From sequence record OK322699.1: DNA of 64,000 nt, one strand, 5' to 3'. A program made the position numbers and the translations under genes. The notes under the pieces were generated by a model. It saw only the letters and a program-made list of their open reading frames with translations. It had not been told where the DNA came from and ran no database searches. Positions 19,831 through 24,582 of this stretch are shown here, in pieces. Origin of the DNA: Escherichia phage Sa157lw. The stretch's first letter is position 1. Each line of letters begins with the position of its first letter.

Positions 19831-20053
19831 AAAATTATCTCAGGTAATGACCGACTGCAACCGCCGGAATTATTGTGATGAAGCGTATACCAAATTGAAA
19901 ACTGCTGTTGAAACCGAGCTGGCAGGTCTTTCCGTTTTCAAAGATATTCAGACCGAAGTGCTATATCTGTCGGATGAAGATTTAAGGCGTTGCCCCCGCA
20001 AGATTTACCAATTACTGGATCGTTTGGTGAAAGTGGGGGTGAATAATGGGTAA
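19802..20053 (+). CDS. hypothetical small protein
   Basis: 83 aa ORF overlapping neighbours. Confidence 0.3.
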   Translation: MSKEIQEAFEKLSQVMTDCNRRNYCDEAYTKLKTAVETELAGLSVFKDIQTEVLYLSDEDLRRCPRKIYQLLDRLVKVGVNNG

Positions 20054-20771
20054 TCGTGAAGGGATTAAACTCACACCAGAACTTCTGAAGTCACATATTG
20101 CTGAAGTGATTTATGAAGACCGTGAAGTTGGTGGTCACCGCGTCATTACATGCCATTTCAAGATGGACAATGGGTTCGTTGTGTGGGGTAAGAATAGTTC
20201 CACATCGGTAGACCCTGCCAACTTCGATGAAGAAATAGGCAAGCAGCTGGCCTATGAAAAGACCTTTTCTCAACTGTGGGAACTGGAAGCATATCGCGCG
20301 ATGGTAGAAAAGCAGATCATCGATGTGTCTGCCGAAGATGCTAAGATCAACATTGATGAATATGTGTCAGAAAGGGAAGCGATACATGAGATGGGTGGTT
20401 CTGAATTTCTTAAGGGTAAAGGACAATCCATCGTGTTTCGTCATCCCAAAGATCCAAGTCGGGGATTTCGCGTTGAATTTGTTCGCACCGATAATGAACG
20501 TTATAACGAACGACGCAATGGTGAGGCACGATCTTTGGTGGAAGCGTATCTTCGCTCGTTCATGACTTCTGAAGAACTAAATTCTGAACTTGTCTTGCGT
20601 TTGGCGAAAACGTGTAATGCTGCTTCAGGGGATTATCCGTGGTGTGACCTGTCAGAAGACAAACGCCAAGCAGCCTGTGATCGTGTTAAGAAATTCTTGT
20701 TAGATCCGAAAGCCCAACCTGGTGATTCCGTAGGGGCACTGTATAGAGCCATTGTGGTGTCCTACTTGTAA
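20046..20771 (+). CDS. hypothetical protein
   Basis: 241 aa ORF, ATGA-coupled to upstream gene. Confidence 0.45.
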   Translation: MGNREGIKLTPELLKSHIAEVIYEDREVGGHRVITCHFKMDNGFVVWGKNSSTSVDPANFDEEIGKQLAYEKTFSQLWELEAYRAMVEKQIIDVSAEDAKINIDEYVSEREAIHEMGGSEFLKGKGQSIVFRHPKDPSRGFRVEFVRTDNERYNERRNGEARSLVEAYLRSFMTSEELNSELVLRLAKTCNAASGDYPWCDLSEDKRQAACDRVKKFLLDPKAQPGDSVGALYRAIVVSYL

Positions 20772-21038
20772 TTCTTCAAAAGTCTTTCAAAATCAATAAC
20801 GTCCGGCAAAATGCTGGGCGTTTCAATTAATAAGCCAAGGTATAATGGCCCAACTGAAAACGCGGGGGAATTTCTTTGTCCAAGCCATTCATTCGTTCCG
20901 GAGTTGATTCTCTAGACTCCCAATTTAAGCCGAGCGAAGTTTTAATCCAACAAATTGAAACCAATCGTGAATTCATAGAACACATGTTGGCAAAGCCGGA
21001 AGGCGAAGCCGCTCAAACCACCAAAGAAGGTAATAACG

Positions 21039-23255
21039 ATGATTGAATCATTAACATTTAAAAATGCGGTAGCAACCGTCGCGCCGTCTAACCATGTAAT
21101 CGTTGTGGATATCTCCGGTTCCATGTACCGTTCACTTCCTGAAGTTCGCAAGCATCTGAAGGAAAATCTCCCGTCTCTGGTTAAACCAGAAGATACCGTC
21201 AGCATTCTTTACTTTTCATCCCGTGGTGATTTCGGTACGGTATTCGCTGGCCGTCAGATCAATAGCGCGACCGATCTCAGTGAAATCAATAAACTGATTG
21301 ACCGCTTCCTGCAACCGTCCGGTTGTACGGGATTTGTAGAACCTCTGAAGTTGGCTGCTGAAACCGCGTTGAGCCTGAACAAACCTGGTTATGTCAATAA
21401 CCTGGCGTTCATGACCGACGGCTATGACAACTGCTGGCGCTCTAATGAAATTCTGGCAGCAGCTGAAGTACTGCCCAAGGCGTTCGATAATATTACATTC
21501 ATCGAATATGGCTGGTATTGTAACCGCGAACTTCTGGCTCTGATGTCCGAGCGTTCTGGCGCGACTCACGTGTTTGCCGAAGGTCAGACTGAATATCAGA
21601 CCGAACTGGAAAACGTACTGAAATCATCTACGCCGAAAGTGGTTGTTGATGTTCCCCTGGTTTACACTCATGCCATCTACGTTGAAAACGGCGTGGCAAC
21701 TGTGCTAGCCGTACAACCCGATGAAGAACACCCGATTGGCCACGTCAGCATCCCTGAAAGCGTTTCTCAGCTGTGGGTTGTAAACCCTAACATGATCGAC
21801 CAGCTGGATAATCTGGCAGACACCCAGGCGGCATACGTGCTGGCATTCTATGGCGTGTACACCATGGACGCCGATCTGGTCTGGGCCGCGCTGAAGAAGA
21901 CGGGTGACGTCCGCTTCATCAAACAATACAGCAACTGTTTCACCAAGCAGGACTATTCCAACATCAAAGTCGATCTGACCCAGGCTATCGTGGATGAAAC
22001 TCTACGCGGCGTAGATGGCATCGATTACAATATGGTTCCAGCTGAAGATGCAACGACCATTGTTGATGTCTTGACCTACCTGGCCGAAGCCGATGTCTCT
22101 GTTGTCACTAAGCATCCATTGTTCTCTTACAACAGCATCGGTCGCGGCACTGTGCAGAAAGTTGATGACACTGAAGACAAGCTGGCTGAACAAATCGCCG
22201 AAGCCAAAACCAAAGCAGAGCGTAAAGCGCTGGCTCTCAAACTGGCTGAGCACGAAGATTGGACACCGGAATTTACTCCGGTTGATGACAAAGGGATTGT
22301 CCCAATTAGCAATCTGGTCTACAATTCAGAGCGCCCTAACATCAGCATTCAGACCGTTCAGCATGGGACGGTTGTTGTGCCGGAGTTCGTACAGAAGAAA
22401 TATGAACTCCCTGAAGAACTGGGAACCTGGCGTTATCGTAATTACACCATCGTCAAAGATGGAATCATCAACCTGAAGACGATGCCGATTACTGCCGAAT
22501 CTCCGATTGTCCGAGCTAAGGTTGTCCAAGATTTGATCGCCATGGGCGTTAATGTATTTGGTGGACCGGAAATCTTCATCGTTAATTTAGAAAGCGTTCC
22601 GATGGTCAACCGCGCCATGACCAAGAACATCAGTGCTGCCGAATTCTTCGCTGACAACGTTCGTCGCGAAGCGCTGAAGGCAAAACAGAAAGTTCTGAAA
22701 TTCTATCGTGATGAACTGGTTGGCAAAGGCAATGCAACTGGTCTGGCTTCTAAATATGGTAAAGAAGCCGCCGATTTCTTGTCGGCAAATGGCATTCGCG
22801 ACTACGGGTTCTCGCCGAAAACTACTTCTGTGGAATCAACCGATGTCTACATGAGCCGTGAGCTGAATGTGAAAATCAAAGGTGCTTCGTCGCTGCCGAG
22901 CATTGCGTCAGTTATCAAAAAGCAAGCAGATGGTAAAAAACTGAATGTCGCTGATCAGTTGATTGCCAATGCTTTGGCCGAATACGACGCTTTTGTTAAA
23001 TCGCCAATGATCACCAGCGTACCTGAAGAGACTCAGAAAAAGCTGATTGAAAGCTGGATCGGAGACGCAGCAAAAGCGGCCATTAACGAAGTCCGCGCCC
23101 TGAACAAAACTCTGTCTAAAGTAGTTTACGGCATCGTCGCTGGTCATGGTTGGTTCACTGATTTGGATCTGGAAGAGTCTACGATGGATGTAGAAGTTGA
23201 TGGGGTGAAATACACCGTCACTGCCGAACTGGCCGAAAAAGAAATCAAAATCTAA
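21039..23255 (+). CDS. von Willebrand factor A (vWA) domain protein with MIDAS motif
   Basis: 738 aa; N-terminal VVDISGSM (DxSGS) and downstream FMTDGYDN consistent with vWA/MIDAS. Confidence 0.55.
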   Translation: MIESLTFKNAVATVAPSNHVIVVDISGSMYRSLPEVRKHLKENLPSLVKPEDTVSILYFSSRGDFGTVFAGRQINSATDLSEINKLIDRFLQPSGCTGFVEPLKLAAETALSLNKPGYVNNLAFMTDGYDNCWRSNEILAAAEVLPKAFDNITFIEYGWYCNRELLALMSERSGATHVFAEGQTEYQTELENVLKSSTPKVVVDVPLVYTHAIYVENGVATVLAVQPDEEHPIGHVSIPESVSQLWVVNPNMIDQLDNLADTQAAYVLAFYGVYTMDADLVWAALKKTGDVRFIKQYSNCFTKQDYSNIKVDLTQAIVDETLRGVDGIDYNMVPAEDATTIVDVLTYLAEADVSVVTKHPLFSYNSIGRGTVQKVDDTEDKLAEQIAEAKTKAERKALALKLAEHEDWTPEFTPVDDKGIVPISNLVYNSERPNISIQTVQHGTVVVPEFVQKKYELPEELGTWRYRNYTIVKDGIINLKTMPITAESPIVRAKVVQDLIAMGVNVFGGPEIFIVNLESVPMVNRAMTKNISAAEFFADNVRREALKAKQKVLKFYRDELVGKGNATGLASKYGKEAADFLSANGIRDYGFSPKTTSVESTDVYMSRELNVKIKGASSLPSIASVIKKQADGKKLNVADQLIANALAEYDAFVKSPMITSVPEETQKKLIESWIGDAAKAAINEVRALNKTLSKVVYGIVAGHGWFTDLDLEESTMDVEVDGVKYTVTAELAEKEIKI

Positions 23256-23293
23256 ATCTAATTGGCGGGGAAACCCGCCTTTACTTTCAGGAA

Positions 23294-23611
23294 ATGAATA
23301 TGAGCAACAAACCGACTTATGTTGATGTCATGCGCGATTTGGCCCAATACGCATGTGACAACCTGAACATGGAAACTTGGCGCGACGGCGATCATAAAGA
23401 AAAGTTCGATAATATCGACGACAACATCGATGCGTTGGCTCCTCTTCGGGCCAAGAGCGATCTCGGCGGTGATGATCTTGACATGATTGAACTCATCATG
23501 GAAGTTGAAGAACAATATGATGTTGAAATCAGTGATGACTGGGTAGGCAAACATGGTGATGATCCCACGCTCGGCGAATTAGCTGAATTGGTAGTTGCCC
23601 TCAGCAAGTAA
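23294..23611 (+). CDS. acyl carrier protein-like protein lacking the phosphopantetheine-acceptor Ser (DDLD instead of DSLD)
   Basis: C-terminal DLGGDDLDMIELIMEVEEQYDVEISDD mirrors ACP helix II [20 protein letters not shown]..IPDE. Confidence 0.45.
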   Translation: MNMSNKPTYVDVMRDLAQYACDNLNMETWRDGDHKEKFDNIDDNIDALAPLRAKSDLGGDDLDMIELIMEVEEQYDVEISDDWVGKHGDDPTLGELAELVVALSK

Positions 23612-23619
23612 ACCAAAAG

Positions 23620-23648
23620 AATCCCCAATATTTATTGGGGATTTTTAC
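23620..23648 (+). terminator. stem-loop AATCCCCAATA ttt TATTGGGGATT + TTTT
   Basis: 11-bp inverted repeat read directly. Confidence 0.6.
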
Positions 23649-23657
23649 TTTTAGGGG

Positions 23658-23686
23658 TTTACTTCTTCTAAAGAATATCCTATTAT
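23658..23686 (+). promoter_or_regulatory. early sigma70-type promoter (-35 TTTACT, 17-bp spacer, -10 TATTAT)
   Basis: promoter family member; TTCAATAA lies just downstream of -10. Confidence 0.5.
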
Positions 23687-23731
23687 TCAATAACTGGCTA
23701 ACGTGGGGTTGGCTAGAAAAGGAGATACAAA

Positions 23732-23971
23732 ATGAAACTACCAGGTCATATTGAAGTTTATATGCGGTTATACAAAGAAGGTAACGCCGCTGCTAAAGAA
23801 CTACACGAACTGATTTTGTCATACGGCGTTAAGTCTGTTACAGAAGTAAAGAACAACAAAATAGACGGCGAATATGTGTCAATCAATGGGCGTGGTCTGA
23901 AAACCAACCCAACATATTTTGTGGGTGTCCATTTAGACACAGGGAAAGAAGTCGTGGAGATCGTGGCATAA
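23732..23971 (+). CDS. hypothetical small protein
   Basis: 79 aa, AAAGGAG RBS. Confidence 0.4.
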   Translation: MKLPGHIEVYMRLYKEGNAAAKELHELILSYGVKSVTEVKNNKIDGEYVSINGRGLKTNPTYFVGVHLDTGKEVVEIVA

Positions 23972-24210
23972 TGTCTAATAAGAAAGTTGAAACGACGGTA
24001 GAAATTGATCGTAATTGGGGATTACTCCGCGCTAAAGGTTTTCGTCGTGTTTATATGACCAAGGAAGTTTATGTTCAGCGTCGCGACGTTATTATCAGCA
24101 AGAAAGGTAAAGAGTGGGTTGCTGAAGAAGTTGACATTGAAACAGGTGTCGTGGGCAAAGTAAAAGCGAAGGCGGCTATTTTGTTTTCTCTTCTGAAGCA
24201 TATCAATTAA
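23971..24210 (+). CDS. hypothetical small protein
   Basis: 79 aa, start overlaps upstream stop. Confidence 0.35.
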   Translation: MSNKKVETTVEIDRNWGLLRAKGFRRVYMTKEVYVQRRDVIISKKGKEWVAEEVDIETGVVGKVKAKAAILFSLLKHIN

Positions 24211-24223
24211 TTCTATAAACTCC

Positions 24224-24250
24224 GGCGGGGTATGATTACCCCGCCTATTT
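24224..24250 (+). terminator. stem-loop GGCGGGG tatgatta CCCCGCC + TATTT
   Basis: inverted repeat. Confidence 0.5.
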
Positions 24251-24294
24251 GAAATTGCAGGAACTTATATCATGATCTCTGTCGAGGGTATAAT

Positions 24295-24582
24295 ATGACA
24301 AAGGAACAAGAACTCGCTTTGTTCTCTATGGTTCGCAGTAATGTTAAATTGAGTTTTAGACAAGTGGACTCCATTATTGATCTTATGAAAATTAAGAATT
24401 CCATAGATAACGATCATTTGCGCACCGCTCTTTTGGGATTGTTGGAATTCGTTTTGCGCGGATCTGATCTTGGACCAGTGAATGATATTGACGACCTGAC
24501 CAAATTGTTAAACACTGGCGGTGATGGTTTCGATACCGCTCGTATTCTGATTAACTGTGGTCCTAACAAAGAAGAGGTATGA
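24295..24582 (+). CDS. hypothetical small protein
   Basis: 95 aa ORF. Confidence 0.35.
   Translation: MTKEQELALFSMVRSNVKLSFRQVDSIIDLMKIKNSIDNDHLRTALLGLLEFVLRGSDLGPVNDIDDLTKLLNTGGDGFDTARILINCGPNKEEV

Follow-up and report, generated by a model that had tools for sequence, protein, structure and literature searches.

What would a lytic phage do with an acyl carrier protein (ACP) that lacks the serine to which phosphopantetheine (Ppant) is attached? The question is raised by an open reading frame (ORF) at positions 23294–23611 of a 64,000-nucleotide stretch of DNA from Escherichia phage Sa157lw (OK322699.1; the whole stretch is called the window below). The phage is Vi01-like, a myophage that belongs to Kuttervirus within the Ackermannviridae. 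The fold label is not in itself new, as GenBank, PHROGs and phage genome papers already use 'acyl carrier protein' for this gene, and GenBank alone has hundreds of records that name it so or as 'phosphopantetheine attachment site protein'. What is new is the absence of the serine from the whole family with an acidic residue in its place, together with an invariant helix II surface, purifying selection and the lack of any conserved alternative Ser or Cys.

An ACP homologue with aspartate at the serine site

The ORF exists as a preliminary description of the window gave it and is a phage gene, 100% identical in Salmonella phage GEC_vB_GOT; over bases 21000–24300 the window shows 100% identity to GEC_vB_GOT, GEC_vB_N6 and SeF3a, all Salmonella phages, and 98.6% to Vi01. 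The gene and its parts are as follows.

23294..23611, plus strand: ACP-like ORF, 105 amino acids (aa) counted from the first ATG
23459..23539, plus strand: helix II region with the DLGGD-D-LD motif, residues 56–82, which reads DLGGDDLDMIELIMEVEEQYDVEISDD; the ACP recognition helix
23474..23476, plus strand: codon GAT of Asp61, at the position of the Ppant-attachment serine, which is Asp or Glu in every family member
23540..23569, plus strand: W-x-G-x(2-3)-G-D-D-P-T loop, W83 to T92, a family-specific insert between helix II and the last helix that is not in AcpP

The PP-binding profile PF00550 matches residues 55–100 at 30.4 bits, above its gathering cutoff of 20.8 (E = 4.7e-7), the PHROGs profile phrog_4154 ('acyl carrier protein') matches from end to end (E = 4e-55), and a phmmer search of PDB sequences returns about 100 ACPs, the best of them Bacillus subtilis ACP (E = 6e-7). 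The phmmer alignment is ungapped and lays DLGGDDLD on DLGADSLD of the B. subtilis protein, which places Asp61 on the Ppant serine. AlphaFold2 (AF2), run on 19 family sequences, predicts a bundle of helices (pLDDT 85.6) in which helix II starts at residue 61, and Foldseek comparison with the PDB gives 50 top matches that are all carrier proteins (probability 1.00), the TM-scores normalized to target being 0.75–0.81 for AcpP-type ACPs. The match to ACP is far beyond chance, and the product of the ORF is a true ACP homologue. The preliminary description, which had called it an ACP look-alike with the Ser of the DSL motif exchanged for Asp and the acidic recognition helix kept, is borne out on each of these points by profile, alignment and the ACP-type four-helix fold; its match of the helix II motif also stands, and only the placing of that match in the 'C-terminal 45' residues has to be corrected, as the quoted motif comprises 27. 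The NCBIfam equivalog models (TIGR00517, PRK00982) give at most 33.3 bits where 70.45 would be required, and the protein stays below the cutoff of each of the 14 ACP models, so it is not an AcpP ortholog.

A Shine–Dalgarno sequence, AGGA, lies 2 nt from the first ATG, and the homologues begin with MSxKPTYV; because of this spacing and these N-termini, the true start of the gene is probably the second ATG, at 23300.

The acidic replacement is shared by the whole family

Across the 18 clusters found in a search of 5.8 billion proteins, the Ppant-serine position is Asp in the 105-aa type of the protein, Glu in the 107–108-aa type and never Ser; the 19 close homologues compared likewise have only Asp or Glu. 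A profile search of 1.84 billion cluster representatives yields only about ten clusters of full-length relatives (P0019–P0029), down to 36% identity, and every member that covers the site has Asp or Glu, as have twenty IMG/VR loci. A shorter version of 90 aa in Miltonvirus, likewise of the Ackermannviridae (Serratia phages Kevin, phiMAM1 and 2050H1), reads LDELD. The codons at the site (GAT 10, GAC 2, GAA 14, GAG 1) are constant in their first two bases and use all four nucleotides in the third. Other viral contigs, in contrast, yielded 61 ACPs, of which 59 keep the Ser. The ORF is unbroken in about 270 phage genomes and also in further relatives from metagenomes. The change from Ser to an acidic residue is a fixed, selected character of the whole family and not a one-off, and the constancy of Asp/Glu agrees with mimicry of a charge or of a phosphate. 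As no member of the family has kept the Ser, the protein is predicted not to be modifiable by Ppant at the canonical site.

Twelve positions are invariant in the most divergent full-length members (K6, Y9, D56, D60, L62, I65, E66, M69, E72, D81, D89 and P91), and on AcpP numbering they include D31, D35, L37, V40, E41, M44, E47 and D56, the central part of the recognition surface on helix II. The family retains, invariant or nearly so, all the equivalents of AcpP D35, D38, E41, M44, E47, E48 and D56; the acidic helix II surface, D60, D63, E66, E72 and E73 around L67-I68-M69, is kept to the same degree. No Ser, Thr or Cys is found among the positions invariant across the divergent family, and there is thus no alternative attachment site. 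The N-terminal half, about 25 residues longer than that of AcpP, diverges fastest, with a mean pairwise identity of 50% against 63% for the C-terminal half. Positive selection can be rejected as the cause, since the ratio of non-synonymous to synonymous substitution rates (dN/dS) is well below 1; at 0.04–0.21 it indicates purifying selection, somewhat looser than that on the vWA-domain gene directly upstream (0.03–0.08).

Further ACP-like proteins of normal ACP length with DEL or DDL at the site occur on short metagenomic contigs (L087, cluster P0032; L088, cluster P0035; and clusters P0037, P0050 and P0060). These contigs are packed with small overlapping ORFs and have a phage-like look, and some of these proteins share the G-D-D loop after helix II, a loop also present in P0042, which keeps the Ser. 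The sequences hint at a wider Ser-less clade as a possible source of the Ackermannviridae gene; the contigs of P0032, P0035 and P0061 are too short for an informative context. A separate group consists of bacterial proteins of 117–146 aa in which a lipoprotein-type signal peptide (L-x-x-C) precedes an ACP-like domain with Ser replaced by Glu or Asp (G-A-D-E-L-D-x-V-E-I), found in metagenome-assembled genomes of Acidobacteriota, Verrucomicrobiota, Planctomycetota and Burkholderiales (loci A4 / L095–L121). These domains are presumably extracytoplasmic and Ppant-less, and no prior description of such a lipoprotein-type Ser-less ACP family was found.

Genomic setting

Three features flank the gene.

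21039..23255, plus strand: 738-aa protein with an N-terminal vWA domain, 38 nt upstream of the ACP-like ORF
23264..23279, plus strand: hairpin of high GC content, GGCGGG gaaa CCCGCC with TTTACTTTC after it, in the 38 nt from the vWA stop to the ACP-like start
23620..23650, no strand assigned: terminator-like hairpin AATCCCCAATATTTATTGGGGATT with a T run, directly 3' of the ACP-like stop codon

The gene is thus bounded by hairpins on both sides. The upstream one (GGCGGGgaaaCCCGCC, with a T-rich tail after it) has a perfect 6-bp GC stem and a GAAA loop; it might serve as an attenuator or as an element at an RNA end, and may set the ratio of vWA to ACP-like product, as co-transcription of the two genes requires that it be read through. 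The terminator-like hairpin on the other side spans 23620–23643. The neighbourhood, an early/middle region, holds genes for replication, nucleotide metabolism and host interaction as well as small genes of no assigned function, and includes no lipid or polyketide enzymes and no users of acyl-ACP; the thymidine-hypermodification gene aGPT-Pplase lies about 7 kb away. Three genes upstream, a 241-aa protein (20046..20771, plus strand) has the domain of the N4 gp49 / Sf6 gp66 family (PF13876), and the order of gp49-like gene, small ORFs, vWA and ACP-like gene is also kept in two divergent metagenomic relatives (L083 and L084). A 56-aa ORF that overlaps the vWA start (20876..21046, plus strand) contains GVDSLDS and is called 'putative acyl carrier protein' in phage Guerrero. 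That label is spurious: the ORF has zero profile matches, and in its homologues the DSLD is DNLD or DTLD or is absent.

Function of the Ser-less protein

From the loss of the Ser, the retention of helix II and the purifying selection we infer that the protein acts purely by protein–protein binding, through the acidic helix II and with a need for a carboxylate at the former Ppant site, and that it is a non-carrier binding protein built on the ACP fold is very probable. As its partners we tentatively favour the host clients of AcpP, for which it might serve as a decoy. This proposal draws on a functional analogy, as apo-ACP and the mutant AcpP(S36T) still bind clients via helix II. In E. coli, helix II is the shared docking site for enzymes of fatty acid synthesis (FAS), SpoT and MukB, and the ACP interactome includes AcpS, PlsB, Aas, YbgC and IscS (PMC3340395), while an excess of non-acylated ACP inhibits glycerol-3-phosphate acyltransferase and stops growth, most strongly as the apo form (reviewed in PMC3896788). 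In the infected cell the phage protein would accumulate as an unreactive look-alike of AcpP, and its helix II would fill the basic ACP-docking patch of at least one client, candidates from the E. coli AcpP interactome being PlsB, Fab enzymes, Lpx enzymes, AcpS, SpoT, MukB and IscS. At position 36 the fixed carboxylate would replace the phosphodiester of the Ppant arm; since the Ppant phosphate is contacted by an Arg of Isd11 in ACP complexes (PMC8547962), a carboxylate is a plausible substitute, and Asp/Glu could imitate the holo state. The outcome would be a competitive block or a rewiring of a host ACP-dependent step.

A stricter version, which we consider rather unlikely, makes the protein a dedicated 'holo-ACP phosphomimic', in which Asp/Glu would imitate the Ppant phosphodiester, so that the protein would lock onto a client of host AcpP and compete there without reacting. 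The target might be PlsB or LpxA/D, affecting envelope lipid synthesis, SpoT, affecting the stringent response, or MukB, affecting chromosome organisation. As SpoT does not bind apo-ACP (PMC3896788), such an acidic 'holo-mimic' might behave unlike apo-ACP.

Several points weigh against host clients as the partners. Their binding by the phage protein is something that we infer, and the conservation of helix II may be in part structural. The N-terminal half, with its extra length and fast divergence, could turn the specificity towards partners other than AcpP clients, as could the W-x-G...GDDPT loop that replaces the helix III region of AcpP, and the 33 bits scored against a required 70 on the NCBIfam equivalogs could likewise mean another specificity. 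The constant adjacency to a vWA protein that bears a metal-ion-dependent adhesion site (MIDAS) points equally well to a partner from the phage itself. The searchable literature, moreover, holds no phenotype, toxicity or expression data for the gene; it contains gene-table mentions only, with no paper on the missing serine or on the function of the gene, and the gene goes unmentioned in a review of the biology of the Ackermannviridae from 2024.

The main rival follows from that adjacency: the ACP-like protein would be an adaptor or subunit internal to the phage, most obviously a partner of the vWA protein, and possibly the Asp/Glu at the tip of helix II completes the metal coordination of the vWA MIDAS in the way that ligand carboxylates do for integrin I domains. 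In such a role it would resemble the ACP subunits that serve eukaryotic complexes structurally and without Ppant, and a Ser-less ACP as scaffold subunit has a precedent (PMC8547962). The MIDAS residues D24, S26, S28, T97 and D127 of the vWA protein are intact and invariant across 34 vWA homologues, down to 34% identity, and the feature selected at the former Ser site of the ACP-like protein is a carboxylate. In an AF2 model of the vWA protein (pLDDT 85.4) the first ~350–400 residues match 4fx5, archaeal ArnB and the Sec23/24 trunk (vWA plus beta-sandwich); the C-terminal half of ~450 aa has no solved structural relative. The ACP-like gene lies 37–65 nt 3' of the vWA gene in every locus of the Kuttervirus, Agtrevirus, Limestonevirus and Taipeivirus type and in four divergent metagenomic relatives, and one peptide each of the two proteins was detected in a preparation of a Vi01-like phage (PMC10892097).

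Against a dedicated vWA partner stands the wider distribution of the vWA family, which spans the Ackermannviridae, the T4-like Slopekvirus and Karamvirus and phage pf16, and more distantly AR9 and Rhizobium phages, under record labels as varied as 'magnesium chelatase', 'minor tail protein' and 'hypothetical'. Phage records in GenBank with a member of this family number about 485, those with the ACP-like gene about 270. In Slopekvirus KP15, Shewanella phage Thanatos-1 and Pseudomonas phage pf16, as in Aeromonas phage phiA8-29 of the Ackermannviridae, nothing ACP-like adjoins the vWA gene. In Miltonvirus, 1.3 kb and four other genes lie between the two. Nor do the proteins co-vary, the vWA proteins being 76–82% identical where the ACP-like proteins are 36–42% identical. 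Salmonella phage maane (L015, 3746–6330) combines a vWA protein 96% identical to that of the window with an ACP-like allele of the other type (DEL), only 61–63% identical, the comparison being with 21039–23611 of the window. Measured against the Agtrevirus-type allele, the dS of the maane ACP-like gene falls below that of the flanking gene; these values indicate a recombinational exchange of the allele at this locus with the vWA gene unchanged. A hairpin, finally, stands between the two genes. Because the vWA family is wider, has members free of the neighbour, is separated from it in Miltonvirus and does not co-vary with it, the link is not obligatory. The preliminary description was right to place the gene directly downstream of a vWA protein; the functional link that it thereby implied is weakened, and we regard the adaptor role as unlikely.

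Bulk negative charge is a further candidate for what is selected. On this explanation the ACP fold would be a convenient scaffold for a generic polyanion, which would either mimic DNA or another nucleic acid or chaperone basic proteins, in the manner of Ocr, ArdA, Arn and gp5.9. The protein is acidic enough for this (net charge –18, isoelectric point (pI) 4.05, 26% acidic residues), its gene stands among early/middle replication and host-interaction genes, and exchange of alleles between related phages is typical of counter-defence genes. However, AcpP, with the same computed acidity in E. coli, is no DNA mimic, and what is conserved here is not diffuse charge but a precise motif, D-L-G-x-D-[DE]-L-D-x-I-E-x-x-M-x-x-E-E, together with the W/GDDPT loop. 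B-DNA mimics, whose surface carboxylates are set out like the phosphate backbone, are usually elongated dimers, whereas this is a small monomeric four-helix bundle, for which Foldseek returns the ACP fold and no known mimic fold. The defence and anti-defence profiles of PADLOC match neither the ACP-like protein nor the vWA protein or the 56-aa ORF. We therefore hold this explanation to be improbable.

Loss of the catalytic serine is also what would be expected of a dead carrier protein, and the gene might in principle be the decaying, functionless remnant of an ACP gene captured from a host or another phage. The selection data effectively refute this very improbable reading: the ORF is intact in the phage genomes and metagenomic relatives counted above, its dN/dS is low, twelve positions are invariant at 36% overall identity, and the residue that took the place of the Ser is limited to Asp or Glu. 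Least credible of all is a genuine carrier, loaded at a non-canonical residue or by an enzyme of another kind for a phage pathway such as thymidine hypermodification, which the GenBank names and the proximity of aGPT-Pplase might suggest, as the invariant residues offer no Ser, Thr or Cys, no enzymes using acyl-ACP are encoded nearby, the published ViI hypermodification pathway reportedly needs no carrier protein, and no AcpS-like ORF was detectable in any Ackermannviridae record with an approximate query sequence (Sfp-type phosphopantetheinyl transferases were not searched).

Implications

The protein is best described as a putative viral, acid-substituted and Ppant-independent ACP of Ackermannviridae phages, and the names 'acyl carrier protein' and 'phosphopantetheine attachment site protein' that it bears in GenBank are functionally wrong, the attachment site being missing. 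AcpP is among the most connected and most abundant proteins of enterobacteria, serving fatty-acid, phospholipid, lipid A, biotin and lipoate synthesis and binding SpoT, MukB and IscS. If the decoy proposal is true, a selected and non-modifiable copy of its docking surface in a widespread group of phages that infect Salmonella, E. coli, Klebsiella and Dickeya would represent a new principle of host takeover, would provide a probe for those AcpP interactions that need the Ppant phosphate rather than the acyl chain, and would offer a starting point for inhibitors, peptides or proteins, of enzymes that depend on ACP. Should it prove to be a phosphomimic, no viral inhibitor known before it would have worked by mimicking the central lipid-carrier protein. 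As a separate observation on the host gene, a non-synonymous acpP mutation is among the changes reported in Klebsiella selected for resistance to a cocktail of cp34 and mtp5 (10.1101/2022.08.04.502604).

Comparison with known systems

With bacterial AcpP (PF00550, clan CL0314; TIGR00517) the phage protein shares the four-helix bundle, an acidity at the level of pI 4.05 and, nearly position for position, a helix II of the form D-L-G-x-D-x-L-D-x-[VI]-E-L-[VI]-M-x-x-E-E followed by D-x-E-I-x-D. It departs from AcpP in the Asp or Glu at the place of the Ppant serine, in the longer N-terminal half and in the W-x-G...GDDPT loop where AcpP has its helix III region. Unlike AcpP, it is encoded in a lytic phage with no FAS or polyketide synthase genes near and, as far as the approximate query can tell, no AcpS-like ORF.

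Canonical phage ACPs (phrog_5934; Vibrio phage ICP1 ORF97; Vibrio phage helene; cyanophage P-HM1) are likewise small, acidic auxiliary proteins with the ACP fold. In contrast to the family described here they keep the DSL serine, the ICP1 ORF97 and helene proteins included, and could be real carriers. ORF97 itself (L122, 1438–1755), labelled 'hypothetical protein', is an ACP homologue with an intact DSL serine and an N-terminal extension. One phage ACP has been predicted to dock on host FabZ (2026 preprint, 10.64898/2026.03.01.708874).

A second likeness is to apo-ACP and to the S36T mutant of AcpP in E. coli (PMC3340395), an unmodified and a non-modifiable ACP that still bind clients by helix II. 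These, however, are laboratory states or mutants of the host protein, and the searchable literature describes no natural phage-encoded counterpart of the apo-ACP inhibitor.

The mitochondrial ACP (mACP) of apicomplexans, as in Plasmodium falciparum, has also lost the Ser; in the phage protein this loss goes with an ACP fold and an acidic surface kept under selection. Bacteria are not known to have Isd11 or other LYR proteins. The P. falciparum mACP, without its Ser, is not phosphopantetheinylated but keeps its acidic residues and acts as a binding subunit of Isd11–Nfs1, and the same study found Ser-less ACPs in no group other than Apicomplexa and Vitrella (Falekun et al., 2021, PMC8547962). 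In mACP the Ser is replaced by a hydrophobic or small residue, Phe, Cys or Gly, and the partner has co-evolved and lost its phosphate-binding Arg (PMC8547962). The phage protein differs from mACP in being viral and in having only acidic residues in place of the Ser, a replacement that would keep the site negatively charged rather than abolish the charge. Contrary to the searchable literature, therefore, Ser-less ACPs are not confined to apicomplexan mitochondria. As the best sequence matches of the phage protein are bacterial AcpP-type ACPs, an origin independent of the apicomplexan proteins is likely; in terms of function, the Ser-less mitochondrial ACP of apicomplexans is its closest precedent.

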